DNA of 64,000 bases from a virus (IMGVR_UViG_3300028797_000121:55594-119593), one strand, 5' to 3'. Shown: positions 2,891 to 61,114, counted from the first letter of the stretch. Notes: generated by a model from the letters alone, not told the origin. Made by a program: numbers and translations.

Positions 2891-3421
2891 TTAAGCTCCT
2901 GTAGAACCAAATCCACCGTCGCCGCGAACAGTATCTGTTAATTCTTCTTTTTCGGTAAATCTAACAGGTACATAAGGCATAACTACTAATTGAGCTATAC
3001 GATCGCCGCCTACAATAGATTTAACTTCATCTGTATCGTTATGAAGAGCTACTATTACTTCTCCTCTATAATCAGAATCAACAACACCTACACAGTTAGC
3101 AGGGCGTAGTCCTTGTTTTGTAGCAAGTCCGCTTCTAGCAAATATTGCACCAAAAGTGTTATATGGTAATTCAATAGCAATTCCAGTTCCTACTTTTACT
3201 GTTGTGTGCGGAGCAATTTCGATTAATCCATCTGATTCTAGGCTATACAAATCATAACCTGCGGCAGCCCCACTTCCTTGAGTTGGAACCTTTGCATCAT
3301 CTTTTAATTTTTTATAATAAACATCAGTTCTTCAATTCATTTTTCCGTCAATTACTTTTACATCACTCATAGTCATACAAGTATCTGAGTTGTCTACTGT
3401 ATAAGTTACTAAATTATCCAT
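2891..3421 (-). CDS. dut: Trimeric dUTPase; code 4
   Basis: Motifs AGYDL, RSGLA, GVVDSDYRGE, GDRIAQL, RGDGGFGSTG. Motif 1 lies upstream of the track start and needs read-through of TGA 3332-3334. Confidence 0.95.
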
Positions 3422-5650: not shown

Positions 5651-6442
5651 TTATTTTTTCAACACTTTTTGTCTGTGTTCATTATATAAATCATATCTAG
5701 TATTCATATCTAATAAGTCAGAAGTGCTTAAATCTTTTGCAAAACTGTTAAATAATCCACAGTTTTTATATTCAGGGCAGCCGCCACATCTTACACATTG
5801 AGGCACACAAGCCCAATAAATATCTTCATCATATTTTTTAATTTCGTTTACTAATGAAGTTCAATATTGTCTAGTAAGCGGATCTGCGCAAGTGCACAAT
5901 CTTTTATAAGAAATATTTAATAATGCTTGAATATTAGCATCCATCTCCATTTTAACTGGATCCATTTGACTTCTAGTCGTTCTATCCACACCAGTTCTAT
6001 CTTGTCTTGATGTACTAATAAACTTTTCACAGCCTTCGTGGTGTCTTGCAAAGTGAGTTGAAATAGCATAAGGAATTTCTTCCCATTTCCAGCTTACAGT
6101 TCCTCTACGAATAGGACTGTGTTCACATAATAATAGTTTTCTTTTCCATTCGTGTGAAGGTTCTTTATCTCCTGCATCTTTTGAAATAGTTGTCATACAA
6201 GCTGCTTTAATATTTTTCCAATTAACATTAAAATTAGTAATTTTAGTTGTTGTATTATATTTTTTACCTTCAGTTTTTATTTCTTCTTCTGGGATCTTTT
6301 TTACTACTTCCCCGGGTAAATATATTGCTTGCATACCAATATACTTATCTTTATATTTTTCTAATACCGCAGAGAGCTCTATCATTTCATTTATTTCTTC
6401 AATTTTTTCACCCTCTGTTGTTGTTAATATAAGTCTAAACAT
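5651..6442 (-). CDS. thyX: Flavin-dependent thymidylate synthase-like protein; code 4
   Basis: HSP, HFARH, SRQDR, KRLC. Read-through of TGA 5861-5863 adds the C-terminal VPQCVRCGGCPE segment. Confidence 0.75.
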
Positions 6443-7296: not shown

Positions 7297-8229
7297 TTAT
7301 TTCTTTTTTATATAAACTTTCTTATCTCCAAAATTTTCTAATTCAGGAGTGATAGAATAAATATTGCCTTTGTCATTAAAATCTATATCTAATCACCAAC
7401 AAGATTTATCATTACCTAATCCAAGACTACGGCAATAAGGTGTTTGATCTTCTAAACAGCTTGTTTGAAAACAATGTGTATTATCTTGTTTCATATAGAA
7501 ACTTTGATGAATATGTCCTGTTTGTAGAATATCTGGTCTATCTTCAAGAGGAGTTGCATCTAAATATTTTTGTAACTTATATGATTTAGCATATGCAAGC
7601 CCGCCTACACCGTGGAATAATCTAATTTTTAATTTGCCAATTTTTAAGTCTGCGGAATCCGCACCTAAGTATTTGATGTCATCACGATCTTTTGCGATTG
7701 ATTTAAGAATTTCACTTCCTGTACTCTTGTACCACCAATCATCATGATTACCTTGTATAGCATAAGTATTGCCGCTAAATTTAGGATATTTTTCAACACA
7801 ATATTCAACTTGTCCTGCATATGAAGGTTCTTTTAGTTCATATATATGTTCAGGTCTGGTAGATCTTCCATCTGTAAAATCGCCAGAATGAAGTATGTGT
7901 TTTACTCCTTTATCTTCAGCTTTATCATATAAATATCTTAATATATCCAATCTATCGTATTTAGAACATAAATGAGTATCACTAATTAATAATAGTTTTA
8001 AATGTTCTAAATTATACGGAATTTCATATGTGTCTTGATTGCGTTTAGGAACTTTCCTTAAAACAATTTCTCCGTCTATGAAATCAATATTATAACCCTC
8101 TCTTGACATAAGAGTAACTAATCCTACGATTTCATAATCTTTTAATCCAAGTTGTTCACATATTTCTTTAAAAGAACGCCCTTTCTTAGTCATGTAATAA
8201 ATTTTATCACATATTTCCTTGTTTTCCAT
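7297..8229 (-). CDS. HTH plus calcineurin-like metallophosphoesterase; code 4
   Basis: SDTH, GDFTDG, GNHD, GHIH. TGA 7393-7395 read through to TAA at 7297, abutting the next gene. Confidence 0.85.
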
Positions 8230-11773: not shown

Positions 11774-12127
11774 TTAATCATGTTTGTCTGAACATTTGTG
11801 GCAGGTACAATCTGAGGAATATTTTGTTACAGATGTATTTTTTAATTCTCCACTATATGTAAAAGGACAAGTATTTTTAGGATAGTTAAAAGTCCAATTT
11901 AAGATAGGAAATTTTCTTTTACACTCAGGACAGAAAATTTCATAACTTTGTGCGGTTCCAGTAGTAATACAACAACCACTAACTGTAATATTTGTATTAT
12001 CATATCTCCAAGTTGGACCTCAAGTTGGACTAATTACATCTTCCCATTCAAATGAAAACTTGCAGCCGCAGTATGGACAGGTAGTTTCCATATAATTCAT
12101 AAAACCATGTTCAATAATCTTTTTCAT
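11774..12127 (-). CDS. Cys-rich zinc-ribbon protein; code 4
   Basis: CPYC...CPEC; TGA 12020-12022; AGGAG RBS; absent from track. Confidence 0.7.
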
Positions 12128-12135
12128 ATATTCTC

Positions 12136-15100
12136 CTATTCTTCTGCGGCATTCTTTCTTTCATGTTCAAGTTTCATATTGCCGCCATCTATTTCTAATA
12201 TTTTATATAACTGATGAGTTTGTGTCTTTGTATAAGTTTTAGCTATAAACATATCATCTCTTCTAAAACCTGTTATCATTACTTTTGTTCCTCTTGTGAA
12301 CCAACCTTTTTCAGTTATTTTCTTTGTTCCATCTTCTTGTATCTCACTTAATTGACGATTATACATTGCATAATATTCTTTTGTGAACTTAACAACTACT
12401 ATACCATTTGTCGTTAAAATAGTTATTGAGTTTCTTGTATCATTTTTATTAATAACCGTTCCTATTATTTTAAATGTTTGAAAGATAGGAATCTCTTTAC
12501 CATTTCTCTTAAACATTGAATCAATAGGAGGGTTAGTTGGCAAATCAAAGAAGTTTACAATTCCATATTTATATGTATTAACATGTGCTAACTCATGTTC
12601 ATGATAATAGAAACATAATGATTCCATTTCCCATGCGGAGATATTTCCTTGTGCATATTTATCCCAACATTCTTTAAATAATAATGTGTTAAATCTTTTT
12701 AACATTTCTTCTTGATGTTCTTGTAACCATGTGCGGGCATCCGCCATAACATCTTGATAAATCTTGTCCCATCTTGTTTGAAGGATACAAGTTAAACCAT
12801 TTATTATTTCTAAATTATCTGCATCAAAGAATTTATTATAAAATTCTTCACAAGCACTATCAAATACATAATATTTTCCAACTTTTTTATTTGCTTTTAA
12901 ATATTTATTAAATACAAAAGTTCTTTTTTGCAAATCTAATTCTTGAGGAATAAGTTCATGTTGCAATAGACCATTAAAGTTTTGCAAAGTTAATCTTTTC
13001 TTTGCATCACATACTTTACTTAAATAATACACCATAGTCCAGATACGAGGCTCTACACCCGCGGCTGCCGCATTATCTTTATCTACTTTATCAAATGCCC
13101 CTGCTTTAATTAAACTAATCATTGCACTTTTATTTAATGGACATTTTGACATAAAATCTGCGATTCCCGCATATGGACGACCTGTTTTTATTTGTTCAAT
13201 AATCGGACCGCCAACATTATTTAATGCTTTCATACCAAATAATATTTCATTATTATCTACATCTGGTTGAAAACTATAATCTGACCTATTTATATCAACT
13301 AAACTAACTTTAATTCCTTTATTAATTATATCTCCTAACGCTTTTGCTATCTTACTATAATCTGTTGATTTTTCTTTCTTTTCAACAACATATCCATCTT
13401 CATCTTCTTCAAAATCACTATCTTCTTCAAGACTTCCGCTATTAACTATTAAACACGCTGTGTTCCAATATATCGGATTCCATCTTGTCGCTATATACAT
13501 TGTTTGAAAACCTATGAAACTATATGCTAATGCGTGAATGATACTAAATGAATAACCCATCTGAGGACCAACACCGCACTTCCATATATAATTACCCATA
13601 CATGGACTTGATGCTTGATCTAATACTTGTTGTCTTAATGCGGGGATCTTATTCATTTGTTTCTTACCAACTATCTTACGTGCGGCATTCGCTTCCGCGA
13701 GAGTGAAGTTACAAATCTTTTCATCCATTAACATTCTCATTAACTGCTCTTGACTTGGAGGAACACCATGTGAACTCTTAAAATATGGCTCTAATACTTT
13801 TTGTTCTTCTTTTGTTAGACCATATGAGTCCATTTCTCTATACCATAAATTTATATTATTCTTAAATCTTATATATTTTTCCATTGGAGTTTCTTGACCT
13901 TTTTCTGCGGTCATTAATCTCATCAAACCATTTGCATCCGCCATTTCCATTATATTTGTTGGCTTAATCTTTTTTGCAGCTTGACCTCCAACATCACTAT
14001 CAAACTGAAAGATATTTAATACACTATTGTCTTGCAATACTTTCCAATATTTATTATCTTCAATAGGAAGAACATTTGGATGAAAATATTTATCATATAC
14101 TTCTCTTAATGTAAAATCACTTTCAATTTCTCCATAATCTTGCAACATTTTAATTGCTTCCGCTAATTTATCTTGAACTTCTGTTACTAAGAAATCATAT
14201 TTTGTCATACCACATGCTTCACACATATGTAAATCATATGCTGTGATAACTTCACCTTTTGGAGTTCTCATAAATGAACCAAACTCATATGGATCTTCAT
14301 CAAACAAGATAACTCCTGAAGCATGACTACTTCTTTTATTTACTAAACCCTCAATACCAGACATAACATCTAATAATCCAGGGAACATATTTACTTCATT
14401 TATAAATGTTTTAATTGGCTTTCTACCTTTTTCTTCATCACCATTAATAACATCATTAAGCGGCCATAAGAACCCACGCTCACTTGGGATTAATGATGAT
14501 AAATACTGTGCTGTATCAACATCTATACCATCTGGATACTCTTCACTTCTATAACCACGACATGCAGTTAATATTGTTGACCTTGTACCCTCTGTACCAA
14601 ATGTTGCTATCAATGTACAACCAAGATTTTTTCTACTTAAATCATCTATTTCCGCCTTAAAATTTTGTCCTCTTTCTTTTTTAATTTCATTTAAAATCTT
14701 AGGACGCTTACTTGGACATAAATCTAAATCTATATCACCTAACTCAACACGTTCTTTATTTAAATATCTCCAGAACGGAAGATTCCATTGTATCGGATCA
14801 AGTTGAGTTATACCTAATAAATAATGATTTAAACCTGAACAACTTGAACCACGACCTGCACCAACTATACTTCCGCACTCCCAAAACAAATTAACATAAT
14901 GTTGCAATGTTACCGGATATGCGAACATATTTGTACCTAATTTTTCACTAATTGTTCTTTTTATGTCTGCTTCTTCATTTAATCTATTTATATATTCTTC
15001 ATTATATTTATCTAATTTTTTTAATCTATTTAAACATTGATTTACCCAATATCTTTCTATTTTATCATCTGATGATAACATACTAGATAAAATAGGATAA

Positions 15101-16074
15101 TCGGGCAAACCATTAACTTTTTCATAATCTTTAACTTCAACATGCGGGATGGTTTGCGCATGTGCCAAACTATAATTTTCTATTTTTTCATATATTTCAT
15201 AACTATTTCTAAACATTTCATCTATAAATACATCATAAAAATCAGATGCTTTTAAATGTTCATATATTTCTTCATCATTTTGAAGATACGCAAATTCATA
15301 GAACTCATCTACTTCACGCTCTCCAAACTTACTATTAAGATATGCTTTATGAACATATCTATCTTCCTTTTTAAGATAATGTGCATCTGTTCCAATAACC
15401 ATTTTTAATCCAAATGCTTTTGCAATAGTTGGAAATCTTTTATTTACTAAAATTTGTTCACGACTTGTTCCTGGAGCACACTCAATATAAAAATTATCTT
15501 CTCCAAAAACTTTTTTACACCACAATAAAAAATTAACTATATTATTATGTGCGGCTGCCGCTCCATTGGTGTCATTAGTTTTTTCACATTTTATTAATTC
15601 TAATGTGTTTACACTTAATTCCCCACCTAAACATGCTGTTGTTCCAATTAAACTATTTGGATATTTTGCTAATATTTCTTCTAAATCACTTTTTAATGTT
15701 GGAACTCTTTCTAATCCTCTGTCCCAATAACTATTCATCCATGCTCTTGATGATAATTCTCTCAATGCACGATGACCCATTTTATTTTTTGCTATTAAAA
15801 TGAAGTGATAATATCTTTGTCCGTTATCTCTTGTGTCAGTTAAATATATTTCATTTCCTAAAGCTATTTTAAAATCAGGATGTTCTTTTTGAACTTCTGC
15901 CTGATAAAAATTAATCTCAGGATGAGAACTAATACATTCATGATCTGTGATTGCTATACCTGATAATCCTAGTTCAATAGCTCTATTAATTAAATCTTTC
16001 GGTCTATTAATACTATCTAATAAACGAAGATTACTATAATGTGTATGTGAATGAACCTCAAACCTCTTAATCAT
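12136..16074 (-). CDS. dnaE: DNA polymerase III alpha subunit (C family)
   Basis: PHP domain HSHTHYS/TDH, GRGS, DIDLD, HASG, KYDFL. Confidence 0.97.
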   Translation of the reverse strand: MIKRFEVHSHTHYSNLRLLDSINRPKDLINRAIELGLSGIAITDHECISSHPEINFYQAEVQKEHPDFKIALGNEIYLTDTRDNGQRYYHFILIAKNKMGHRALRELSSRAWMNSYWDRGLERVPTLKSDLEEILAKYPNSLIGTTACLGGELSVNTLELIKCEKTNDTNGAAAAHNNIVNFLLWCKKVFGEDNFYIECAPGTSREQILVNKRFPTIAKAFGLKMVIGTDAHYLKKEDRYVHKAYLNSKFGEREVDEFYEFAYLQNDEEIYEHLKASDFYDVFIDEMFRNSYEIYEKIENYSLAHAQTIPHVEVKDYEKVNGLPDYPILSSMLSSDDKIERYWVNQCLNRLKKLDKYNEEYINRLNEEADIKRTISEKLGTNMFAYPVTLQHYVNLFWECGSIVGAGRGSSCSGLNHYLLGITQLDPIQWNLPFWRYLNKERVELGDIDLDLCPSKRPKILNEIKKERGQNFKAEIDDLSRKNLGCTLIATFGTEGTRSTILTACRGYRSEEYPDGIDVDTAQYLSSLIPSERGFLWPLNDVINGDEEKGRKPIKTFINEVNMFPGLLDVMSGIEGLVNKRSSHASGVILFDEDPYEFGSFMRTPKGEVITAYDLHMCEACGMTKYDFLVTEVQDKLAEAIKMLQDYGEIESDFTLREVYDKYFHPNVLPIEDNKYWKVLQDNSVLNIFQFDSDVGGQAAKKIKPTNIMEMADANGLMRLMTAEKGQETPMEKYIRFKNNINLWYREMDSYGLTKEEQKVLEPYFKSSHGVPPSQEQLMRMLMDEKICNFTLAEANAARKIVGKKQMNKIPALRQQVLDQASSPCMGNYIWKCGVGPQMGYSFSIIHALAYSFIGFQTMYIATRWNPIYWNTACLIVNSGSLEEDSDFEEDEDGYVVEKKEKSTDYSKIAKALGDIINKGIKVSLVDINRSDYSFQPDVDNNEILFGMKALNNVGGPIIEQIKTGRPYAGIADFMSKCPLNKSAMISLIKAGAFDKVDKDNAAAAGVEPRIWTMVYYLSKVCDAKKRLTLQNFNGLLQHELIPQELDLQKRTFVFNKYLKANKKVGKYYVFDSACEEFYNKFFDADNLEIINGLTCILQTRWDKIYQDVMADARTWLQEHQEEMLKRFNTLLFKECWDKYAQGNISAWEMESLCFYYHEHELAHVNTYKYGIVNFFDLPTNPPIDSMFKRNGKEIPIFQTFKIIGTVINKNDTRNSITILTTNGIVVVKFTKEYYAMYNRQLSEIQEDGTKKITEKGWFTRGTKVMITGFRRDDMFIAKTYTKTQTHQLYKILEIDGGNMKLEHERKNAAEE

Positions 16075-16621: not shown

Positions 16622-16915
16622 CTACATTTGAGGGAACGAGCTGCGTCTTCCGCCTTTGGCTCTAACTCTAGGATTTAAATATGGCGTTTTATTAAAATTG
16701 CCAATGCAGTTAGATACAATTAATGAATCTGATACTTCTTGAGATTGACCTTCTCTAGGTTTATATCTAAATGCAAATCTGCATTTCCTAGTTCCAGAGT
16801 GAAGGTCTACAATTTTATATACACCAATTCGATTACCTCTTTTCTTATCAAAATCTTTATACCAAACTGCTCATCTATCACTGATAACACCTTTTATTTC
16901 ATATTTGTTATTCAT
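16622..16915 (-). CDS. Hypothetical protein; code 4
   Basis: AGGAGG RBS, one TGA at 16871, fills the gap exactly. Confidence 0.6.
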
Positions 16916-18181: not shown

Positions 18182-19987
18182 TTAAAAGTTATATTTACTT
18201 TGTCCTATAATTTCATAATCTTCTACTAATATTTGTGGTGTTACATTTCCCATTCATTCATTTTGATTACATTTACCAATGACATTTATTTCTACATAGC
18301 CATCGCTTAATAAATTTTCATATTCTTCTTGTGAACTACCAAATTTGATAAAACTTAATTTATTTGGTAATGTAATCTTTAAAGTAGGCTTTTTATCTGG
18401 TGACATTAAAACTAAATTATCTTTTGTCACTTTTAAATTTTCAACACAGATTAAACTTTCATCCATGTCTTGACCCCATATATCATTTAGATTAGCTATA
18501 TCTAAAATAGTTTCGGCTTTAACATCAACACCCTTAAATATATAATCTATATAATATAATGGTTCACTTTGTAAATCTTTTAATGCTTCATCTGTTAATT
18601 CTATAAATTTATCAATATATGCTTTTTTAATACTAATACCAAAAGCATTTTGATGTCCTTCAGCATATTCCACTAAGCCAGTTTCTTGACATATATCTTT
18701 AAAATTTTCAATTCCAGATTTAGAATATCCGCGGGCACTTCCGCGATAATATATATCATAAGCTGGTTTAGGTGGCATTGTTAATAATTGCATATTAGGA
18801 TTTAATACTTCACATTTAGTTAGCATAAGTACTGGTCTTTGATATTTAGCCATTATCTTATTTGCAATTAAACCCGCAATATTAGGATCTATTTGACCTG
18901 GCTCAAGTAAGAATATTAATACTTTATGTTGCATCATATTATTTGTTTCAATTTGAGATTCAACAAGAGCCATACCTTTATCTTGTTCTCTTGTTTGTCT
19001 ACTTTTTACATTAGTTGCAGTTCTTAGTGCTTGGTCAACTAATTTTTCTTCTTCACCTAATTTATGTCCACGCTTATTAGATAATATCATTTTAAATGCT
19101 TCATTTTTAAGCATTGATTTAAATAATATTTCTTTTTCTTCAAGAGTTCCACTTCTAACCATTGAGTTAACAAAAGGAACTATATAAAATGCTGCACCTA
19201 TTGGTGTTATTTTATTTCCTAATGAGTATGCGTTCTTTTCAGCCATACCATATATAAATGGGTTCTTTATATTTTCGTTGCGGAAACCCTTGGTTATAAT
19301 ATGTTTGGTCTCGATTGAGCGTAAACTCATCATGTCGCCGCAATTTCCTAGTGCGGCTAAATCTATATATTCATCTGCTGTATGTCCACCACGTATCTTA
19401 TCTAAATAACGACAAAACTGCCATACGACACCAGCTCCTGATAATTGTTTATTTGGATAATTTGATAATTGATTATTAAGCACAATAGCATCTTTAGATA
19501 CCATTGGTGCTTCATGGTGGTCTAGAATAATAATTGTACGACCCTCTTCTTTTAGTTTGTGATGATACTCATAATCATTACTTGCGGCATCAGGAATAAT
19601 AATTAATTTAAAATCATTTTTTTCTATGTAATCCATACAATCTGATAAACCATGCGTTTTATCTTCGTGCAAATAATATTTTAAATTATTTGTTACAAAA
19701 GTAGGGAATAAATCATATAAGTAGTTTATAAGTATTGCGGCAGATGTATAACCATCGCAATCGCAATCTACCAATACTAATGTTTTTGAATTATTATTTA
19801 TCGCTAAAATTAATGCGGCAGCGGCCGCTTTGATGCTCTCAGAACCGAGCATCTCCGCGTCCAAAATATCTGCGTCTGTTGTATTTAAGTAATGATGCAT
19901 ATCACTTAACTTAATACCTCTATTCAACAATATTTGCTGAATAGGACTTAGGGCTGGATCGACTTCATTGATTAACTTATATTTCAT
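18182..19987 (-). CDS. recJ: RecJ-like ssDNA exonuclease (DHH); code 4
   Basis: DCDCDG, DHH, RGSAR, GH..AFG. TGA 18254 restores the OB-fold NE*MG..PQ segment. Confidence 0.88.
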
Positions 19988-20197
19988 TTATCTCACCTTG
20001 CCTTTGTTTTCATAGTCTCGATAATTAACCATACGTATCTGGTCATTGGCTCCACGAGTTATAATAATAGCTTCTTTAACTTGATTTTCATCAAGTTGAC
20101 TTAAAGCGGCATATTGCCCCGCTTCGGTTACTCAACCAAAGAACGTGAACGTAGGATTGTCTCAAGTTTTTATTCATAACTCGAGTTTATCGTTCAT
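19988..20197 (-). CDS. Hypothetical protein (69 aa, 3 TGA); code 4
   Basis: GGAGGAGG RBS; fills the primase-recJ gap; TGA at 20174, 20162, 20132. Confidence 0.6.
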
Positions 20198-25640: not shown

Positions 25641-26570
25641 CTACTTATTTATACCTGTGTTACTGTTATAGCCGAACTTATCGGACTGATATAATTGTAT
25701 ATAAAATCTTTCTTTTTCATTAAGCTGATCGCGGCTGCACTCTTCTAAAACCTCAAAAGAGAATGATTCTAGTCCATCGTCTAACATAGCTTTATATAGT
25801 TTATTATTTGCGGGAGTGTCGATTCCTAGACCGGCTTTCGCATGGTTTTTCCAACGAGTGGCTATATCAACAGCTTGACCTATATATACTAAATCAGTTT
25901 TTTGATTTGTAATTTTATATATGCCGCACTTTTCTGCAGTATTGCCGCCTAATACATTAGCACATACTTGGTTCATAGGTTTTTGATAATATGATTGCCA
26001 TATTAACATACGCAAGATGCGGGGATTGTTTAATTTATATTCTATATCGTGTAGAGTTTTAGCATCTTTAAGGTCGGCTTCAGGAACTTGTGGACAATAG
26101 AATGCTTGTTTATCTTTAACCTCTTGTTCTTTAAGTTGAGCATCCATTGCGGCAGCTCGGGTTGATGAAATTTTCTCGAGTTCTTTTCTGATTTTATCTG
26201 TTTCCGCCATTAAGTTTTTTTGTATTTCATCATAAGCCTCTTGCAATGAATCAATAGCTTCATCATATTCTTCTTCTGTTAATTTATAATTAGTGTCTAA
26301 TGATTCACAATATTGGGTAAAAGCGTCATAGGCGGCCGCATTAATATCCTTTGTAATATCTGTTATTTTCTCTAGTTCTTTACTTTTTTCTAATTTTGAG
26401 TTATTTAAAGTGTATATATCTTCAGTAATTAAATCTCTTTCTCTTCTTAAATTTTCATTGTAATTTTCTATATCTTTATTAACTTCATAAATTTTTCATT
26501 TTTTAAATATTAATATTACAAATAGAATACAACACATTATACCCAAAAATATAGTTATAAAATCTTGCAT
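25641..26570 (-). CDS. TM anchor plus coiled coil plus GIY-YIG nuclease; code 4
   Basis: AGGAG RBS and ATG at 26570, TM segment, TGA 26496-26498; GIYKI...YIGQA...RW..H...GYN. Confidence 0.8.
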
Positions 26571-26634
26571 AAATTCTCCTAATAAAAAAAGATTGAATAG
26601 CATCCTTCAACCTTTTTTAAAACTTTTTTATAAA

Positions 26635-27195: not shown

Positions 27196-29115
27196 TTAAA
27201 ACATTAACCTTAATTCTTCCTCTGTAATAATTGGAATATTCATTTTCTTTGCGGCGATATTTTTACTTGAGGTGCTCATTATATCATTATTAACTAGATA
27301 ATTAACATTTCCGCTCATTGAGCCAACCACTTTACCGCCTTGCGCTTCTATTAATGCTTTAAGCTCATCTCTATTTTTTACTGTATGAACTTTTCCTGTA
27401 ATACAGAATACTATATCTTTTAATTTTGAACCTTCCTCTTCATCTTTTTCTTCTTGGATTGTAAAAGCATAGTTAACAACTTCATCAAGCTCTGTATAAT
27501 CAAAACTTAATAGAGCGTCATTCATTACTTCTCCAAATCCATCATATTGGGTGAAGTCAAAACCTGAATTAATTTTATTTCTAAAATCTTCATAGGTTTT
27601 TATATATTTACACAACTCTTTCGCAACAGCGCGTCCTATCAAAGGAATACCGGCTGCCGCAATTACTGCTTCAAGAGTTGGATGTTTACTATTGTTGATG
27701 GCTTCCAAGATCCTCTCTACTGACTTTTCTCCAAAACCAGCTTTGTTTTTCCATTCATTTGACTTGTTTTCTAATTTATATATATCTACATAATTAGAAA
27801 TCCAGCCCCAGTTCACAAGTTTCTCGAGAGTTGCCGTTGAAAGCCCTCTTATATCTAAACCTTTCTTGCCACAAAAATGGTCAAGACGGTTTATAAACTT
27901 ACCTTGGCATTGCGGATTGTCGCAATATAATACCTTAACACCATCGTTGTCTAATACTTCAACCGGTTCGTTACATATTGGACAAACTTCTGGCATCCTT
28001 ATTACACCTTCATTATAACCTAATTTTTCGGCTCTTTCAACTTTTGGTATAATCATATTTCTTTTTGTAACCCAAAGTTTTTCATTGATATAAGGGGTGC
28101 CTAATGTATCTTCTAATACTGATACATTTGATAGACTTGCTCTTGATACTTCTGTTCCATCAATTTCAATAGTATCAAATATGGCTACTGGTGTTAAAAC
28201 TCCTGTTCTACCCATACTCCATTCAATATCTTTTAAATATGTTTCATATTCTTCATCATAAAATTTATATGCCATACCACCTTTAAAATGATGGTCAGTT
28301 TTACCTGCGGCAATATAATCACTGTTTTTGTCATATTTGAATACTACTCCATCAATTGGATATCCTAAAACTTTAGCACTTTGTTGTATTAAATCAATAC
28401 TTTTTTCTATTGTATCATCTGTATAATATGGAACTATTGTGAAACAAGCAAATAAATCTTGTAGTTCATATAGTTTTTCTGATAGTGTTTCACACCATTC
28501 TAGTCCTTTTATTACATCCCAAACAACAAAAGTTAAATGTCTAGAAGCACTTTCTTTACTATCTAATAATCTTATGCTTCCACTAGCAAAATTTCTAGGA
28601 TTTTTATACTCATCTTTAAATGGTTCAAAATCATTATAAGTGCAAATAATTTCTCCATCTAAAACTAATTCATCTACATAATTAATTTTATTAGGAATAT
28701 TTTTAACTTGTAAAGCATTATGTAAAATATCTTCACCTATAACCCCATTTCCGCGGGTTTCCGCAGATATAAGTTTACCATTTTGATATTTAATTGAACA
28801 AGTTAATCCGTCCATTTTTGCCATAGCGATATATTTTTTATTATCAATAAAAGATTTGATAACATCTATATCTTTTGTTTTATCAAGGGATAACATTGGA
28901 TGATTATGTTCTACTTTTTTAAGTTCATTAACAACTTGATAATTTACACATTGAGTAGGACTATCTTCATAGAAAATACCAGACTCTAATTCTTTTGCTT
29001 GCAACTGATAATACATCCAGTCCCAATCTGCATCAGATATTTCTGGATGTCCTTCGTCATAAAGCTTAGTATAATAATTCAATTTATCAATTAAATCTCT
29101 AATTTCTTTATCCAT
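27196..29115 (-). CDS. ligA: NAD-dependent DNA ligase
   Basis: KMDG, TRGNG, DGVV, Zn finger, BRCT. Confidence 0.97.
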   Translation of the reverse strand: MDKEIRDLIDKLNYYTKLYDEGHPEISDADWDWMYYQLQAKELESGIFYEDSPTQCVNYQVVNELKKVEHNHPMLSLDKTKDIDVIKSFIDNKKYIAMAKMDGLTCSIKYQNGKLISAETRGNGVIGEDILHNALQVKNIPNKINYVDELVLDGEIICTYNDFEPFKDEYKNPRNFASGSIRLLDSKESASRHLTFVVWDVIKGLEWCETLSEKLYELQDLFACFTIVPYYTDDTIEKSIDLIQQSAKVLGYPIDGVVFKYDKNSDYIAAGKTDHHFKGGMAYKFYDEEYETYLKDIEWSMGRTGVLTPVAIFDTIEIDGTEVSRASLSNVSVLEDTLGTPYINEKLWVTKRNMIIPKVERAEKLGYNEGVIRMPEVCPICNEPVEVLDNDGVKVLYCDNPQCQGKFINRLDHFCGKKGLDIRGLSTATLEKLVNWGWISNYVDIYKLENKSNEWKNKAGFGEKSVERILEAINNSKHPTLEAVIAAAGIPLIGRAVAKELCKYIKTYEDFRNKINSGFDFTQYDGFGEVMNDALLSFDYTELDEVVNYAFTIQEEKDEEEGSKLKDIVFCITGKVHTVKNRDELKALIEAQGGKVVGSMSGNVNYLVNNDIMSTSSKNIAAKKMNIPIITEEELRLMF

Positions 29116-29177
29116 ACTTATCTCCTTATATATAAATTATACTATATTTTTTAAATTAAATCAATAAAAAAATGTTG

Positions 29178-31499
29178 TTATAGTTTAACAACATTTTTAA
29201 TTTCATTTTTAGCTACCTTTACACCAATAGTTGTTCTACTTTGTTCAGGTAATTCACTAGCTTCGATGCATATGCTATTAGGTTTGCCAATAAGTAATAA
29301 ACTATCTTCATTACTTACTAATGCGGCACCCGCAATCTCTTCACCGCATCCTTTAACCCCTTTACCGCCTCTTCCTTGAGGAGTGAATTCAGTTAAAGCA
29401 CATCTTTTACCAGTTCCATTTTTATTTATTAATGCTAATGATTGACCTTCTTTTACTATTACTCCGGCAAGAATTTCATCGCCATCATTAAGTTTAATAC
29501 CTCTTACACCAGCTGTTACTCTTCCAATAGGGGCAATATCACTGGTTGTAAATCTAATCATCATACCTTTTTTAGATATTAAAATTAAATCTTCTTGTTT
29601 CATAAACAATACATTAGCAATACTATCTCCATCTTTTAACTTGATAGCTTGAGCACCAGTTGATTTTTTAAGACCTGTATATTCAGTTAATAAAGATTTT
29701 TTCACAGTTCCTTGTTTAGTTACAAATACTACATAGTCAGCGTCCACACCTTTATCTAATGATGCTGCCGCCATCACTTTTTCATCTGACTCTATTGATA
29801 CTAAACTAGCGATATTTTGTCCTTTTGAAACATTTGTTCCAACAGGTAGCTTATCAACTAATATCTTATACATTTTACCTTTATTAGTAAATAATAGTAA
29901 GTTATCAACAGTATTAGTTTTTATAGAGGCTAATGTTGCATCATCTTCAGATTTTACACCTTTACCATTTCTTCTTTGTGTTCTAAAACTTGATTTAGGT
30001 ATGCGCTTAATATCACCTGTTTGAGATAACATTACAACTACATCTTCAGGAACAACTGCTTGAACTTCTTTTTCAGCTTTAGGAAGGTCTATTTGTGCTA
30101 ATTCAGTTCTTCTAGCGTCTCCATATTTCTTAACCAATTCATTTAATCTATCTTTTATAATAGAAATTTGAATATCTTTTGAACCTAATACTTCTTTCAT
30201 ATCTTCTATATCTTGAACTAAACTAACTTTTTCTTCATTTAATTCTACTTTTTCTAATTTAGCCAAGCTACCTAATCTCATAGCAACAATAGATTTTGCT
30301 TGAGGTTCAGTAAATTTATACTCTTTGATTAATCCATCACGTGCGGCTGCACTTGATTCAGACTGCTTAATAAAGGCAATTATATTATCAATGTCTGCTA
30401 ACGCCTTTAACAAGCCCTCTACAATCTCTAGGCGGGCTTCCGCAGCTTTTAAATCATATTCAAATTCTTTAACTAAACAATTAACATTATGGTCTAAATA
30501 TAATTTTATACAATCTTTTAAATTAACTTCTGTTGGAGTTTTATTAATTAAAGCAACTTGATTGTATGAAAAACTACTTTGTAAATCAGTTTTTAAGAAT
30601 AGTTTATTTGCTATTGAGTCTGGATTAATACCTTTTCCACATTCAACTACAATTCTTAAACCTTTTTTATTACTTTCATTTCTAATATTTGTAATCTCAG
30701 GAATATCCTTTTCAGCTATTTCCCCGATTTCCGCAATTAAACTTTCAGTTGAAGTTCCATACGGTATCTCGTAGAATACTATATTTTGTCCTTCAAGTTT
30801 ATATTTTGCTCTAATTTTTACACTACCATGACCTGTTTTCATAATGTTTGGTATATCATTTTTATTAATTACTACACCACCTGTTGGAAAGTCAGGACCT
30901 GGTAACATTGGATCTTTGCCCTCAATATAGTCGCATATAGCTTCCGCAACTTCTTTTAAATTATGAGGGGCAAAATTACACGCCATCGCAACACCAATAC
31001 CCGTATTTGGATTACATAGTAAGTTAGGGAATATTGCAGGTAATGTAACTGGTTCTTCAGCGTCCTCAGAGTAGTTAGGAATAAAATCAACATTTTTCTT
31101 TTTAATTCCTTTTAACATACCATCTTCCGCAAGTTTTGACAATCTTGCTTCAGTATAACGCATATGAGCTGGTCCATCGCCATCAATGTTTCCATTAGAA
31201 CCGTGCCAATCAATAAGCGGGTATCTCATAATCCAAGGTTGAGATAATCTTACAAGAGCTCCATAAATAGAACTATCGCCATGTGGGTGATATGTTCCCA
31301 TTACATCTCCAACAATTTTAGCTGATTTAACATGAGGTTTAGAGAATGTATATCCTTTTTCAAAAGCTCCCCATAAAATTCTGCGGGCTACAGGTTTTAA
31401 TCCACAAGTTGCGTCAGGAATTGCTCTATCTGTGTTTACCGCTACTGCATATTCAATAAAATTTGTGCTTAATTCATTTAAAATATCATTATTCTGCAT
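29178..31499 (-). CDS. gyrA: DNA gyrase/topo IIA subunit A
   Basis: YHPHGD, MRYTEARL, GPDFPTG, CTD with QRRNGKG. Confidence 0.93.
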   Translation of the reverse strand: MQNNDILNELSTNFIEYAVAVNTDRAIPDATCGLKPVARRILWGAFEKGYTFSKPHVKSAKIVGDVMGTYHPHGDSSIYGALVRLSQPWIMRYPLIDWHGSNGNIDGDGPAHMRYTEARLSKLAEDGMLKGIKKKNVDFIPNYSEDAEEPVTLPAIFPNLLCNPNTGIGVAMACNFAPHNLKEVAEAICDYIEGKDPMLPGPDFPTGGVVINKNDIPNIMKTGHGSVKIRAKYKLEGQNIVFYEIPYGTSTESLIAEIGEIAEKDIPEITNIRNESNKKGLRIVVECGKGINPDSIANKLFLKTDLQSSFSYNQVALINKTPTEVNLKDCIKLYLDHNVNCLVKEFEYDLKAAEARLEIVEGLLKALADIDNIIAFIKQSESSAAARDGLIKEYKFTEPQAKSIVAMRLGSLAKLEKVELNEEKVSLVQDIEDMKEVLGSKDIQISIIKDRLNELVKKYGDARRTELAQIDLPKAEKEVQAVVPEDVVVMLSQTGDIKRIPKSSFRTQRRNGKGVKSEDDATLASIKTNTVDNLLLFTNKGKMYKILVDKLPVGTNVSKGQNIASLVSIESDEKVMAAASLDKGVDADYVVFVTKQGTVKKSLLTEYTGLKKSTGAQAIKLKDGDSIANVLFMKQEDLILISKKGMMIRFTTSDIAPIGRVTAGVRGIKLNDGDEILAGVIVKEGQSLALINKNGTGKRCALTEFTPQGRGGKGVKGCGEEIAGAALVSNEDSLLLIGKPNSICIEASELPEQSRTTIGVKVAKNEIKNVVKL

Positions 31500-33408
31500 T
31501 ATATGTAGCCTCCTCACTATGAGCTTTTATAAACTCTTTACGAGCAACAACTCCTGTTCCCATTAGGTCATTAAATAATTCATCTGCGGCCTCCGCATCT
31601 TCAACTGTAATTTGTTTAATAATTCTATTGTTAGGGTCAGTTAATGTTTCTTCTGTTTCATCAACAGACATTTCACCTAAACCTTTCATACGATTTACAG
31701 TTATTTTTTTATCACCTATTGTCTTTTTAAACTCTTCTAATTCTTCATCATTTTTAATATATTTATATTCTTTACCTATTGTTACTTTATATAATGGTGG
31801 AACACCTGCATATATATATCCATCTGCAATTAATTGTGGACAGAAGTTCCATATAAAAGTATAAAATAAGTTTTTGATATGGGCGCCATCAACATCCGCA
31901 TCAGATTCAATAATAATCTTTCCATATCTTAAACTACTCTTGTCATAAGTAACGGTCATAGTCTTAGTATCGATATACAATCCAAAGGCATCAATCATTG
32001 TCATAATTTCTGCATTTTTTTGTATCTTATCTAAACTAGCCTTTTGTGTATTAAGTATCTTACCACGAACAGGCATAACAGCTTGGAATTCATTATTTCT
32101 TGCTGATTTTAAGTTTCCACTTGCTGAATCACCCTCTGTGATATAGATTTCACATTTACTTCTATCTTTTGAATAGCAATCAGCTAATTTACTATCAAAT
32201 TTTAATGCTTTTTCTTTTTTCTTATTATTTTCTCTAACTCGTTCACGAGCAGATTTAGCTGCCTCTCTAGCTTTTCGTGCGGCCGCCGCTTTATCAAATA
32301 TTATTTTTATTTCTTTTTCATTATTTGCTAACCAATATTGTAAGTTTGTTGCAATAACAGTAGCAAAATTACTCATATCTAATTTAGTTACAGTTGATTT
32401 AACTTGTGCATCATATGCAACATTAGGGGCTGTAATATTAAATACAATATACATACCCTCTTGTATATCATCACCTGTTAAATTCTCTTCTTTATCTTTT
32501 AGCCATTTTTTATCTTTAAAGAATTTATTAAATTCTCTTGTAATTATAGATTTAACTTGCGTAATATGAGGTCCTTTTTCTGTAAGACCTGTATTAACAT
32601 AAGGAACTAATATAGAAGAATAGTTTGATGTATATGTTAATACCATATCTATTTTTTCTTTACCTTCTTCATATTTTAAATTAAATCTGTTAGCTATAAT
32701 TTCTTTATTTTTTACTGCTTCATCAACTAAATCATTTATACCATTTTGTGAATAATATTGAATTAAAGTTTCACCACCATTAATATTCAAGTTAATAGTC
32801 AATCCAGGACACAAACAAGTGATAGTGTTAAATAAATCTTTAATTTTATTTTCTTCTATTGTTGTATGTGTAAAGAATTGTTCACTTGGAGACCATTTTA
32901 CAATAGTTCCAGATGGGTGAACTAAATTACCAGTTTTTCTTTCTTGAAATACTCCCTCTTTAAAAATAACAGTTTCATATTTGTTATCTCTATATGTCGT
33001 TACTTCTAGTTTATGAGATAAGAAAGTTGTAATTTTAGAACCAATACCAAATGAACCTAGTGATGTTCCTTCATATGTACCATCTTCACGATATTTACCT
33101 GAAGTATTTAATACACTGAATGCGGCCTCTAATACAGATTTACCGTCATCTCGAATTTCATTAGGAATAAAACCTTGACCAAAATCTTCAACTGTAACAG
33201 TAGTATCTTTATCTTTATTAGAAATGGTAATATTGATTTTATCACCATGACCTAGTCTATATTCGTCAACAGCATTAGATACAATCTCTACTAATAATTG
33301 TGTTGAATATGTTGTATCACCTGCATAAACACCCGGTTTAAGACGAGTAAACTCTAGAGGTGATAATGATTCAATACTATCTTTAGTATATAACTTTTTA
33401 TCCGCCAT
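31489..33408 (-). CDS. gyrB: DNA gyrase/topo IIA subunit B
   Basis: NAVDE, EGDSA, PVRGK, DADVDGAHI, KGLGEM. Confidence 0.93.
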   Translation of the reverse strand: MADKKLYTKDSIESLSPLEFTRLKPGVYAGDTTYSTQLLVEIVSNAVDEYRLGHGDKINITISNKDKDTTVTVEDFGQGFIPNEIRDDGKSVLEAAFSVLNTSGKYREDGTYEGTSLGSFGIGSKITTFLSHKLEVTTYRDNKYETVIFKEGVFQERKTGNLVHPSGTIVKWSPSEQFFTHTTIEENKIKDLFNTITCLCPGLTINLNINGGETLIQYYSQNGINDLVDEAVKNKEIIANRFNLKYEEGKEKIDMVLTYTSNYSSILVPYVNTGLTEKGPHITQVKSIITREFNKFFKDKKWLKDKEENLTGDDIQEGMYIVFNITAPNVAYDAQVKSTVTKLDMSNFATVIATNLQYWLANNEKEIKIIFDKAAAARKAREAAKSARERVRENNKKKEKALKFDSKLADCYSKDRSKCEIYITEGDSASGNLKSARNNEFQAVMPVRGKILNTQKASLDKIQKNAEIMTMIDAFGLYIDTKTMTVTYDKSSLRYGKIIIESDADVDGAHIKNLFYTFIWNFCPQLIADGYIYAGVPPLYKVTIGKEYKYIKNDEELEEFKKTIGDKKITVNRMKGLGEMSVDETEETLTDPNNRIIKQITVEDAEAADELFNDLMGTGVVARKEFIKAHSEEATYNAE

Positions 33409-33472: not shown

Positions 33473-34018
33473 TTACTCTATGGCAAGAGTAATATTATTT
33501 TCTTTTAAAATTTTGGCTAATTTTGTTGCATCTCCGCTTTTTTCCGCAACAGCATAGGCATCCGCAAGTTCATTTCCAATTTCATTATTATGACCCGCAA
33601 TTTTATATACGCCATAGTTGGGGAAATCTACTTTTGTATATTCATATATTTTTTTAACTAAATCTAAGTTTTTAACTTCTTCTTTTGAACTATTTATCCA
33701 ATTATTTTTAGCTCAACTGTATATTCAAGTATTAAACATATTAACGACATAAGCGCTGTCGCTATATATTAATACATCACAATCTTGATATTTTGTAGTG
33801 GCTAATTCTAATGCTTGTATTAGACCTTTTAATTCCATACGATTGTTTGTTGTTTCTTTCTTTTGCATAAGGTGTCCATCCATATAGGTCTCTTCTCCGC
33901 CTGTATAAGCATCGTATATAGTATTAGTTTCTGCGTCATATCTTACACAACTTCAACCGCCGATACCAGGATTGTTATTACAAGCTCCGTCAGTGTATAA
34001 ACGAATAATTTTTCTCAT
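33473..34018 (-). CDS. rnhA: Ribonuclease HI (181 aa); code 4
   Basis: YTDGACNNNPGIGG*, TTNNRMEL, SDSAYV, *IYS*AKNNW, GH...NELAD. TGA at 33953, 33725, 33713. Absent from ORF track. Confidence 0.95.
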
Positions 34019-36194: not shown

Positions 36195-36490
36195 TGTTAT
36201 CACCTTTCTTTCTTACCTCATATATTAATATTATATAATATTTTTAAAATTTTTTCAATTATATAAAAAGGTGCGGGTGGCCGCTACCCAACCTTATTTT
36301 AATATACGCGCGCGTGTGCACGCGTGATTATATAATATTTTTTTATAAAAATCAATAAAAGAAATGCGGCCGCAGGTCCTTCCTGGGGTACACTCATGGT
36401 TAAAGAAATGATTGACCGGCCGCCGCAAGAACTTATTGATTATTTATAAAAAATATTATAAAATATAAATGTAGAAAGGAAATAGTAGAT

Positions 36491-36688: not shown

Positions 36689-36700
36689 TAAAAAGGAGAG

Positions 36701-36985: not shown

Positions 36986-37064
36986 TGGGTTCAGTTGAAA
37001 GACTGAAAAAATTATAGTATAATGGTAATGTAAAAAAATTAAGAAAAGGAGAAATTTTAAGATT

Positions 37065-37451
37065 ATGGAAAACGAAAAGAAAATGACAAAAAGAGATTAT
37101 TATGAAGAAATTTTAAGTATTTTAACAGAAACAGATTTAACAGATGAAACAAGTGCTTTAGTAGACTTCGTTAGAAATCAAATTGACACTCTTGATAAGA
37201 GAGCTGAAAAAGCAAAAGAAAGAGCTGCTGAAAAGAAGGTTGAAGGAGACGAGTTAAGAGAAACTGTAAAGAATGTTTTAACTAATGATTTCCAAACTGT
37301 AGAAACTATTGTAACTGCTCTTGATAATGAAGAAATTACAAAGGCAAAAGTTATTGCTCGTTTAACACAATTAGTTAACTTAGGTGAAGTTGAAAAAACT
37401 GACATCAAAGATGAAAGTGGAAAAACTAGAAAAGCATATAAATTAGCATAA
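37065..37451 (+). CDS. TKRDY-family wHTH protein, paralog 1
   Basis: MTKRDYY...LVDF...C-terminal winged helix; homologous to 55258, 60761, 63376. Confidence 0.8.
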   Translation: MENEKKMTKRDYYEEILSILTETDLTDETSALVDFVRNQIDTLDKRAEKAKERAAEKKVEGDELRETVKNVLTNDFQTVETIVTALDNEEITKAKVIARLTQLVNLGEVEKTDIKDESGKTRKAYKLA

Positions 37452-37498
37452 TAAATAAAAGTGTTGGAAACAACACTTCTTTTTATAAGAGGTGGATA

Positions 37499-38371
37499 AT
37501 GAAATATTGTATTGATTTTCAGGGAAAACAATTAGATATATTTAATGAAGTTGATGAAATAAATATTGATATTTTAAAAACTAATTTAGAGGATTTAAAA
37601 GAATATTGTGAACTTCATAAAGACCAAAGAATTAATTTATGTATTAACAATTATGATGATGCAATAGATAATAAAAAGTTCTTTGTTCCTTTTGATTTTC
37701 AAAAAGATAATCCTTCATATAATGTAAAGATTAGATTACCTGAATGAGATGAAGCATATTTTAAAGATGTTAAAAAAATATATCCTGAGTGCAAAATATA
37801 TTTTAATTTATATATAAACGATTGGGATTTACTATATGAGTTTTTAGATCGAGGTGTTTCAGATGTTTATATCGTTGAACAATTAGGTTTTGAATTAGAT
37901 AAAGTAGCTCAAGTTGTTCATGATAAAGGTGCTCAAATTAGGGTATATCCTAATGTAGCACAATCACAATATAAAGCATTAGATGATATATTAAAATTCT
38001 GGATCAGACCTGAAGATGTTGAGGACTATGAACCATATATAGATGTTTTTGAATTCTTTGGAGATGCAAATAAACAAAATTTATATTATGATATATATAG
38101 CAAAGATAAAAAGTGGATGGGCGACCTTAAAGAGATTATTATTGATTTAGAAAACTCATTAGATAGCACTTGTTTAGTTCCTAGATTTTGTAAAAAAAGA
38201 ATAACATGCGGCCGTAGCTGTATGAAGGGCGGGAACTGTAGAATGTGTAATCATGTTATTGCGTTAGCTAAATCATTAGGTGAAACCCCACTAAGAATCA
38301 TAAGGGAGGATTTTGAAGATGGCGAGAGGACAGGTAGCGAAAGCGGAAATACAAAAGAAGATATTGAGTAA
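37499..38371 (+). CDS. U32-peptidase-like protein; code 4
   Basis: TGA 37745-37747 joins track ORFs 37499 and 38117 in frame; FWIRPEDV and terminal Cys cluster. Confidence 0.55.
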
Positions 38372-42776: not shown

Positions 42777-43139
42777 ATGGAATTAAAGAAAATAGAAGAT
42801 TATGAATTAGAAGAATTAGGTAAAAAAAGATTACTTATTAATAAATATGGTATGGATTTATTATATACATATGAAGTAAATAGGTATTGGAAAGAATTCT
42901 TTTTTGATGTAATTGATAAATTAGCTCAAAAGAGTGGTTTTATTATTAGACAAGATGAAAAATCTTTATTTGATGATTTAAAAAAAGATTATTATAATCT
43001 TATTGAAAGAAATAATTTAAACATTGATATTAACGATTATGTAGAAATAAATGATTATATTACATTTGAAGAGTGGTTAAAAGATGAAAACCATGACTAT
43101 GTAATTGTTAAAGATGGCATATATTTATTAGTTAAATAG
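42777..43139 (+). CDS. Hypothetical protein
   Basis: AGGAG RBS. Confidence 0.7.
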   Translation: MELKKIEDYELEELGKKRLLINKYGMDLLYTYEVNRYWKEFFFDVIDKLAQKSGFIIRQDEKSLFDDLKKDYYNLIERNNLNIDINDYVEINDYITFEEWLKDENHDYVIVKDGIYLLVK

Positions 43140-43233
43140 GGGCTTAGTGTAATGGTAGCACAACGGTCTTCAAAACCGTAAAGACGGGTCTCCAAAACCC
43201 GGGGTGTGGGTTCGAATCCTACAGCCTCTGCCA
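43138..43233 (+). tRNA. tRNA-Trp-like gene with two tandem anticodon arms (UCA then CCA); candidate UGA decoder
   Basis: Acceptor AGGGGCT/AGCCTCT, G73, CCA; arm 1 ACGGT-CT TCA AA-ACCGT; arm 2 CGGGT-CT CCA AA-ACCCG; normal D and T arms. Confidence 0.85.
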
Positions 43234-43358: not shown

Positions 43359-43432
43359 AGGGATATCGTTCAATGGTAGGACTGCGGTCTCCAAAACCGC
43401 GTATCTGGGTTCAAGTCCTAGTGTCCCTGCCA
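43359..43432 (+). tRNA. tRNA-Trp(CCA)
   Basis: GCGGT-CT CCA AA-ACCGC, G73, CCA, 74 nt. Confidence 0.95.
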
Positions 43433-44874: not shown

Positions 44875-44951
44875 GCCCTCTTAGCTCAGTAGGATAGAGC
44901 AACGCCCTTCTAAGGCGTGTGTCCGGGGTTCGAATCCCTGAGGGGGCGCCA
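44875..44951 (+). tRNA. tRNA-Arg(TCT)
   Basis: Cloverleaf, CCA. Confidence 0.95.
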
Positions 44952-47942: not shown

Positions 47943-48070
47943 CCTAAAGCGAAGTTGTGATGCTTTAAAATAATAACAATTTCATATTTTCATTTCTTCC
48001 AAAGAGAATATATTAAGTTAGAGGGAATTTTTAAGCAAGTTCCCTTTAATCTGTAATGAAAGGGAAAATT

Positions 48071-48622
48071 ATGGAAACAATTAAATTAGATGATAAAAAA
48101 TTTAAAATAAAACTTCCAAAAAAGAAAACTTTATTTTTGTTTCTAGTTCCAAGTGTAGTTATATTATTCATTGTTTTATTTAAAATATTTTTCAAAGTGG
48201 GCTATGCTTACTATGAAATTCAAGAAACTGGTGAAAAGATTAAAATAGGGTATTCAGTTAATAAAAGTTTAGTTGAAGATACTATGTATGACTATATGAA
48301 AGAAATTAAGGAACAAGGGTATGATATTATTGAATTTAATATGAAAAAATATTATACTAAAAAGTTTGCTATTTTTCCAAAGAGTAAATATAATTACTCT
48401 GAGGTCATTTCACGCATAAAAGAGGGAACCTATGTATCAATAGATGCAAGTAAGATTACAGTTAATAATGTATTTATTTATGTAAACTTTAAAGAGGGTA
48501 AAAATATTTTTGAAAAATTCAAAAAATTTAAACCAACTTTGGAAAATGTATATGTTGATATTTCTCAAATATGAACAAGTGATGAGATAGAAAATTATTT
48601 TAATGAAATATCTAAAAAATAG
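48071..48622 (+). CDS. Membrane-anchored hypothetical protein; code 4
   Basis: N-terminal TM; TGA 48572 read through to TAG 48620-48622. Confidence 0.65.
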
Positions 48623-60665: not shown

Positions 60666-60760
60666 TTTTATCACCTCACATTATAAGTATAACATAACTA
60701 GGTTTATTTGTCAATAGTTTTTTCAAAAAGTTTTAGAGAAGGGGAACAAGTCCCCAACTC

Positions 60761-61114
60761 TTATTCACTTATTGTAAAGTATGCTTTTTTCTTATCAACA
60801 ACACGAACGATAACATTTGTATCTTTTAATTGTGTTAATAAAGCACTTATTTTTTGATTTGATAGATTTGCTAATTCAGTGTTAGCATTTTGAATATCAG
60901 TTATTGTAGAAGGTTTGTTTAACTCTCTTAATGTTTCAACGATAACATTTTTAATAGTTTCGTTTTCAATTTGAGTTTTGCTAGGAGTTTTAACACTTGC
61001 CTTACGATTTAATAACTCTAATTCGTGGTCAATAAACGCAACTAGGTTTTCATTGTCCTTTACAATTTCCTTTAATTGATTAAAATAATCTCTTTTAGTA
61101 ATTCTTTTTTCCAT
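60761..61114 (-). CDS. TKRDY-family wHTH protein, paralog 3
   Basis: About 83% identical to 63376 (20/117 differences by eye). Confidence 0.85.
   Translation of the reverse strand: MEKRITKRDYFNQLKEIVKDNENLVAFIDHELELLNRKASVKTPSKTQIENETIKNVIVETLRELNKPSTITDIQNANTELANLSNQKISALLTQLKDTNVIVRVVDKKKAYFTISE

Follow-up and report, generated by a model that had tools for sequence, protein, structure and literature searches.

A single uncultured tailed phage, known from a record of 119.6 kb, very probably combines two properties: its genes use TGA as a sense codon for tryptophan, and a tRNA(UCA) of its own drives a switch of code during its expression. That TGA means Trp is established as far as sequence analysis can do so, and three independent tests support it, namely codon alignment with relatives, Pfam scores by residue, and repeat positions shared by TGA and TGG. 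Use of the codon is strongly mosaic, and this pattern fits a phage-driven switch in a host with the standard code better than it fits a code 4 extending to the whole organism.

The window, that is, the entire 64-kb stretch analysed here, corresponds to bases 55594-119593, the right-hand 64 kb of a linear IMG/VR virus record of 119,593 bp that is ~80% complete (CheckV). The G+C content of the record is ~0.30, and its GC skew is strand-linked, tracking the gene blocks. Functions were assigned to genes using PHROGs and Pfam. Upstream of the window, in the left half of the record, lie the genes of a tape-measure protein, of tail proteins and of an endolysin, together with several that encode very large DUF285 (BspA-like) or Listeria-Bacteroides-repeat proteins. 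Four adjacent giants among these (754, 1024, 1373 and 673 aa; record positions 36183-48957) match the same DUF285-type PHROG families and contain up to 4.6% Trp, nearly all of it written TGA; no orthologues of them were found in the three related genomes introduced below, so these genes look like a fast-changing receptor-binding cassette. Within the window, positions 1-36,000 are occupied by minus-strand genes, beginning with two glycosyltransferases, an NDP-sugar dehydratase-like protein, dUTPase, thymidine kinase, phosphoesterases and NrdD, and also including a DNA polymerase III alpha-like protein, a Dda-like helicase, RecJ, a DnaB-like helicase, an NAD-dependent ligase, two type II topoisomerase subunits and RNase HI. 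On the plus strand, positions 36,000-60,000 carry the genes of 24 tRNAs together with those of an RNA ligase and a sigma-70-type factor. In this record, which is ~80% complete, we identified no terminase, and a domain search of it returned neither RF-1 nor a TrpRS (class-Ib synthetase) domain, either of which could be encoded in the missing part.

Relatives were found through RNase HI, and three related records were compared over their full length: G001 (104.5 kb), G003 (136.5 kb) and G004 (131.6 kb, with direct terminal repeats and therefore complete); the present record is G000. A search of viral contigs with an 878-aa tail protein as query gave no related loci. The replication genes of the record are Firmicutes-like, and in INPHARED the polymerase best matches phages of Enterococcus and SPbeta-like phages of Bacillus, with 39% identity. 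One scan of genome contigs recovered endolysin homologues (N-terminal, 62-71% identity) on three low-G+C MAG contigs, all densely coding under code 11 and probably pieces of phages or prophages. The labels of these MAGs disagree (Coprobacillaceae, Muribaculaceae, Clostridiales) and are too inconsistent for a host to be named from them.

Coding density, computed over the whole record from greedy non-overlapping ORFs of at least 60 aa, is 0.667 under code 11 and 0.908 when TGA is sense (code 4), a clear gain in the comparison of the two tables that the initial, sequence-only reading of the window had proposed as a check. Taking TAG as sense gives 0.704, and taking TAA as sense 0.826, a value inflated by the very frequency of TAA in A+T-rich DNA. 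All three relatives likewise gain density under code 4. In total, 324 in-frame TGAs fall in 135 ORFs, and in RNase HI, RecJ and the DUF285 proteins the Pfam match extends over such codons.

The RNase HI gene illustrates what is at stake. Under table 11 there is no ORF of at least 60 aa over 33473-34018, and under table 4 there is one of 181 aa that spans three TGAs. A hidden RNase HI with TGA in GG* and in *IYS*AKNNW (asterisks mark in-frame TGA) had been suggested at this place, and the ORF, the two strings, the Pfam match and the Trp columns all bear it out. The Pfam RNase_H domain (PF00075) covers residues 5-158 (6e-30; 104.7 bits versus a cut-off of 25.8) and crosses every one of the three TGAs. 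When solved RNase HI structures are aligned by phmmer, codon 22 meets a W (3h08) or a Y (Shewanella enzymes), and the two tryptophans of the W-x-x-x-W segment lie opposite codons 98 and 102; the acidic residues of the TDG, NNRMEL, SDS and late AD motifs are aligned with those structures and kept. Stopping at the first TGA would leave a product of 21 residues and hence no active enzyme. Relatives carry TGA or TGG at these sites and nothing else, and the TGA/TGG counts among the RNase HI Trp codons of the four related genomes are 3/1, 3/1, 0/6 and 5/0, every Trp of the G003 enzyme being TGG.

Which amino acid TGA stands for was studied at the codon level by aligning the genes of the record with those of the three related genomes (60,826 aligned codon cells). 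Opposite our own TGAs lie 213 cells, which contain TGA (119), TGG (50), Tyr codons TAT/TAC (13), the Phe codon TTT (5) and at most four of any other residue. Among all aligned subject codons TGG has a share of only 0.74%, and the substitution spectrum of TGA mirrors that of TGG. Columns of Gly or of random residues, named in the sequence-only reading as the outcome that would speak against Trp, were not seen: Gly codons occupy 2 of the 213 cells, and TGG and TGA dominate. Homologues at a greater distance point the same way. Between the glycosyltransferases and distant TGA-free homologues, TGA stands opposite TGG in 60 of 88 positions (6 of them gaps); for the gene at 578..1795 the figure is 52 of 71 aligned cells with standard-code IMG/VR homologues; and for the endolysin it is 3 of 3 against the homologues on the code-11-dense MAG contigs.

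In a Codetta-like test, a kind of analysis that had also been proposed, TGA was translated as alternative residues and each version of the protein was scored against Pfam. Trp scored highest in both domains that discriminated. For DUF285 in the 1373-aa protein, which has 51 TGAs, the scores were 506.5 bits with W, 443.6 with Y, 369.9 with L, 362.1 with C, 334.5 with G, 334.1 with R and 325.7 with S; for RNase_H they were 104.7 (W), 95.3 (Y), 93.5 (C), 91.4 (R) and 89.6 (G). Scores of the GT2 Pfam domain failed to discriminate between residues. The same 1373-aa protein offers an internal comparison, as each of its 26-aa repeats begins with a conserved W that is written TGA in most units and TGG in few.

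Beyond RNase HI, at least 14 other repaired genes had been announced, and we count ~16 in which the TGA is required by a Pfam domain or spanned by alignments to relatives (Table 1). Both glycosyltransferases are restored by read-through and have Pfam matches. The dUTPase needs it too, its code-11 ORF beginning at codon 58, within the Pfam domain. The strings quoted for RecJ and for the phosphoesterase are present as given, and the RecJ site is TGA in two relatives and TGG in one. Also present, on the minus strand at 12008-12028, is the duplicated motif SPT*GPTW, with TGA and TGG at equivalent positions. Two of the proposed labels found no support: the gene called ThyX, which we assume to be the one at 5651-6442, has no Pfam, PHROG or PDB sequence match, and ThyX (PF02511, Thy1) has no match anywhere in the record; the U32-like gene, assumed to be the one at 37499-38371, is without Pfam, PHROGs or PDB sequence support, and peptidase U32 (PF01136) is likewise without a match anywhere in the record. 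Two GIY-YIG proteins had been listed, of which the one at 25641..26603 holds and the second does not, the record containing a single GIY-YIG match. As to the small ORFs, relatives span the TGA in several of them, and a number of those in the tRNA region overlap tRNA genes and are regarded as spurious. In the sigma-factor ORF, translation probably starts downstream of the two TGAs found at its 5' end.

Table 1. Features of the window discussed in the text; positions are counted from the first base of the window, and asterisks stand for in-frame TGA.
Feature	Position	Strand	Details
RNase HI	33473..34018	-	181 aa; 3/4 Trp codons are TGA
RNase HI in-frame TGAs	33953-33955 (PGIGG*S); 33725-33727 and 33713-33715 (NT*IYS*AKNNW)	-	codons 22, 98, 102
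GT4-type glycosyltransferase, 5' part	1..587	-	382 aa; 6 TGA overall, 3 within the window, the rest upstream; PF00534 1.4e-13
Family-2 glycosyltransferase	578..1795	-	405 aa; 11/11 Trp codons TGA; PF00535 8e-19
dUTPase	2891..3421	-	TGA codon 30; Pfam domain residues 42-175
263-aa protein, family unassigned	5651..6442	-	1 TGA; relatives spanning the site carry TGA or TGG
Calcineurin-like phosphoesterase	7297..8229	-	TGA codon 279 (CW*LD)
117-aa Cys-rich protein	11774..12127	-	duplicated motif SPT-TGA-GPT-TGG
97-aa ORF	16622..16915	-	1 TGA; site TGA or TGG in relatives
RecJ-like exonuclease	18182..19987	-	601 aa; Pfam DHH + RecJ_OB; TGA codon 578 (NE*MG), within RecJ_OB 482-590
69-aa ORF	19988..20197	-	3 TGA, 0 TGG
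GIY-YIG endonuclease	25641..26603	-	320 aa; TGA codon 36, upstream of the domain
143-aa ORF	37100..37531	-	1 TGA; TGA in 4/4 aligned cells of relatives, alignment runs beyond
290-aa Cys-rich protein	37499..38371	+	1 TGA
188-aa ORF	48056..48622	+	TGA codon 173; TGG in one relative
126-aa hydrophobic ORF	60708..61088	+	4 TGA; sites TGA, TGG or TGT in relatives
Contrast: DNA polymerase III alpha-like	12136..16074	-	1312 aa; 0 TGA, 19 TGG
Contrast: NAD-dependent ligase and two type II topoisomerase subunits	27196..33408	-	0 TGA, 16 TGG
tRNA(UCA), reads UGA	43138..43233	+	ARAGORN; Infernal RF00005 60.6 bits; anticodon loop CUUCAAA
tRNA-Trp(CCA), ordinary	43359..43432	+	125 nt downstream of tRNA(UCA)
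tRNA-Arg(UCU)	44875..44951	+	Infernal: perfect ACGCC/GGCGU stem, loop CUUCUAA; only Arg tRNA of the 24

Termination in this genome appears to rely almost wholly on the two other stop codons. It had been claimed that every credible gene ends in TAA or TAG, and the count of 100 TAA and 35 TAG agrees, but under code 4 this is true by construction. No conserved gene needs TGA as its stop, and the C-terminal TGAs of RecJ and of the ORF at 48056-48622 are TGG in relatives, from which it follows that the 15-aa tail of the latter is coding. Three further TGAs lie close to the end of their genes (584-586, 61077-61079 and 60035-60037). In two of these genes the TGA is two codons ahead of the TAA stop, and in the third, which has no homologue, 17 codons ahead. 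They may represent former TGA stops, each followed by a reserve stop.

A tRNA gene able to read UGA is directly evident in the window, next to an ordinary tRNA-Trp(CCA). It encodes its CCA end and has an A1-U72 pair and G73, which in bacteria are Trp identity elements. Its acceptor stem of 7 bp argues against a selenocysteine tRNA, the acceptor stem of bacterial tRNA-Sec being 8 bp long. It also possesses a 23-nt extra arm with a 7-nt loop (CUCCAAA) that repeats the anticodon-loop sequence of the tRNA-Trp(CCA) next to it. The core without this arm shows 75% identity to the phage tRNA-Trp(CCA) and 77% to tRNA-Ser(UGA); being about equally near to both, it leaves the Trp identity to rest on A1-U72, G73 and the codon evidence. 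The tRNA(UCA) is conserved in G001 (98%) and G003 (83%), and the extra arm is kept in both of them and in the 3' half of the gene of G004.

In G004 (C1:106277-106978) the gene is split in the anticodon loop, after U34, by an insert of ~616 nt that carries a 153-aa ORF matching PDDEXK_5 in Pfam (1.5e-16) and 2ost in PDB (E 0.002). Rfam reports no group I intron in this insert at E <= 0.01. Its layout recalls what we take to be a comparable arrangement, the Synechocystis tRNA-fMet group I intron with I-Ssp6803I, and the code-switch tRNA of G004 may need splicing. One other call in the tRNA region was rejected: the tRNA-Pyl(CUA) that ARAGORN places at 44875-44951 is a misfold needing a C-C mismatch, and Infernal identifies it as tRNA-Arg(UCU). 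There is thus no amber suppressor and no sign of TAG recoding, which was likewise discarded as a candidate, given that TAG as sense barely lifts density.

We then come to the distribution of the codon, in which the initial proposal of code 4 held for the meaning of TGA and did not hold for uniform use across the genome. Late genes of at least 100 aa have 254 TGA and 68 TGG (TGA share 0.79), and the minus-strand nucleotide-metabolism and replication block has 9 TGA and 97 TGG (0.08; Fisher odds ratio 40, p = 7e-40), a mosaic that is a direct observation on the sequence. At third positions, A is preferred to G in either block, with shares of 0.82-0.95 for the Lys, Glu, Gln, Leu, Arg and Gly pairs; since the preference for A is equal, the replication block must be avoiding TGA as such, an effect that mutation bias does not account for. 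NrdD and the DnaB-like helicase lack TGA altogether, as do the ligase and the topoisomerase subunits, which are TGA-free in all four related genomes. The early/late divide is blurred in G004, where TGA accounts for 3 of 18 Trp codons in the polymerase and 4 of 5 in the Dda helicase.

Inside the replication block (window 1767-35914), TGAs sit mainly in the nuclease-type genes for RNase HI, RecJ, GIY-YIG and a phosphoesterase. Counted as TGA/TGG, nuclease-type genes against ten core replication genes give 6/8 against 0/56 in our record, 8/6 against 4/52 in G001, 11/3 against 9/47 in G004, and 0/11 against 0/58 in G003. The contrast reaches p values of 2e-5 to 1e-4 in G000, G001 and G004, with a grouping chosen after seeing the data, so that we regard it as a lead and not as a result.

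These observations suggest the following model. The phage would supply its own tRNA(UCA), with tryptophan-type acceptor features, and the host TrpRS would presumably charge it, the record having no TrpRS of phage origin; once charged, the tRNA would compete with release factor 2 at UGA. The immediate-early genes (polymerase, NrdD, helicases, ligase and topoisomerase subunits), being TGA-free, would be translatable in an unmodified cell with the standard code, and the tail, tape-measure, receptor-binding (DUF285 repeat) and lysis genes, with ~80% of their Trp written TGA, would be made at full length only when the suppressor tRNA is present. The exceptions in the early-looking block (RNase HI, RecJ, the GIY-YIG nuclease, the phosphoesterase, dUTPase and the two glycosyltransferases) carry TGA and would depend on the tRNA as well. 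We infer the charging by TrpRS, the competition with RF2 and the timing role of the mosaic, together with a standard-code host, which is suggested by the avoidance of TGA in early genes and by the literature.

The mosaic could alternatively be a product of history without any part in timing, that is, of a recent recoding in which G-to-A drift has so far replaced TGG by TGA mainly in genes that evolve fast or were acquired recently. The degree of recoding does vary among close relatives, whose code-11 density goes from 0.67 to 0.77; in G004, TGA has begun to appear in the polymerase and helicase; and a preprint (bioRxiv 10.1101/2021.08.26.457843) describes genomes that differ in code despite an ANI above 90%. 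However, late genes are near the equilibrium expected from the A/G bias (0.79 versus 0.86-0.95) and early genes are far off it, at 0.08, and in three of the four genomes the replication block has its nuclease-type genes recoded and its core enzymes not (p = 2e-5 to 1e-4, for a post hoc grouping). As the whole explanation, drift is therefore unlikely; in part such a history is possible, and it is compatible with the timing model.

A host that itself uses code 4 (a Mollicute-like or other bacterium with TGA as Trp), with which the phage would simply share its code without any switch, seems to us more improbable still. The low G+C of 0.30 would suit it, as would the Firmicutes-like replication genes and the presence, in the heavily recoded proteins, of DUF285, a Pfam family named after Mycoplasma; and most cultured code-4 phages infect Mycoplasma or Spiroplasma (PMC11210395). 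Yet in such a host nothing should bar TGA from early genes, where it writes 8% of Trp, compared with 79% in late genes, both blocks sharing the A-ending bias, nor keep the ligase and topoisomerase subunits TGA-free in four genomes, nor leave the RNase HI of G003 with TGG throughout. The closest endolysin homologues lie on code-11-dense contigs, and standard-code hosts are predicted for such clades in the preprint (bioRxiv 10.1101/2021.08.26.457843). That TGA encodes some other residue (Gly as in code 25, Cys or Sec), or that we are looking at pseudogenes or assembly errors, has almost no probability left: code 25 phages do exist (same preprint) and ARAGORN labels the 96-nt tRNA 'SeC' for its long extra arm, but Sec and Gly are ruled out by the codon alignment, with its two Gly cells, and by the DUF285 scores, which lose 172 bits with Gly and 144 with Cys, and the TGAs are conserved as TGA or TGG across relatives, with the motif residues of RNase HI intact.

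If the switch operates as proposed, the suppressor tRNA might in addition act as a translational safety catch, the selective placement of TGA in nuclease-type genes and glycosyltransferases delaying enzymes that could harm early replication intermediates. In G004 the switch may itself require the splicing of the endonuclease-bearing insert out of the tRNA(UCA) anticodon loop. We offer this extension tentatively, and hold it to be a good deal less probable than the code switch itself.

In practical terms, gene calling under table 11 fragments or misses roughly a third of this record's coding sequence, and table 4 is the one to use. Lost under table 11 are nearly all tail and receptor-binding genes, as well as RNase HI, dUTPase, RecJ and the glycosyltransferases. 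Gene prediction tools already cover table 4 for phages (PMC11210395). The four related genomes, in which RNase HI goes from all-TGG to all-TGA, capture recoding in progress, and the phage would add a further well-documented case of early translation being separated from late translation by the meaning of a codon. In the papers compared here (PMC9523058; PMC11210395), code 15 (TAG-to-Gln) is the only phage recoding reported as validated by proteomics; the dense use of TGA in abundant virion proteins makes the present phage family a good target for TGA-to-Trp proteomics.

Recoding of stop codons is known from several systems with which our phage can be compared. Mycoplasma, Spiroplasma and their phages (code 4) share with it the reading of UGA as Trp through a tRNA-Trp(UCA) that exists beside tRNA-Trp(CCA), but there TGA occurs across the whole genome and in all gene classes, whereas here it is nearly excluded from early replication genes. 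The crAss-like and Lak phages with TAG-to-Gln recoding (code 15; PMC9523058), which has been validated by metaproteomics (PMC9523058), share the reuse of a stop as sense in late genes and a suppressor tRNA of phage origin; they differ in the codon and the amino acid, and our phage has no amber suppressor.

The closest parallel is the TGA-recoded 'Agate' lineage of Borges et al., phages of ~127 kb from the guts of cattle, pig and tortoise (bioRxiv 10.1101/2021.08.26.457843). TGA used as Trp with a late-gene bias is already published for gut and rumen phages, so that the finding made here is correct and the phenomenon is not new. Agate has its replication genes in the standard code, a suppressor tRNA(UCA) and close relatives that differ in code, one of which, a standard-code genome, uses 108 TAA, 34 TAG and 4 TGA stops. 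The model put forward for it is that TGA-free early genes are read in the code of the host, after which the suppressor tRNA enables the TGA-rich structural and lysis genes. Our phage resembles Agate and the other phages of that study in the Trp meaning of TGA, the phage tRNA(UCA), the TGA in structural and lysis genes, the standard-code replication machinery, the balance of stops (100 TAA, 35 TAG), a GC skew that tracks gene blocks and relatives that are unevenly recoded. The complete relative, G004, has 131.6 kb against the ~127 kb of Agate; the likeness is one of described features, no terminase having been identified here for placement. An extra arm with a CCA loop, as in our tRNA(UCA), was not found described in the passages of that preprint compared here. 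And unlike what is described there, the TGA exceptions in the replication block of our phage are mainly nuclease-type genes and glycosyltransferases.
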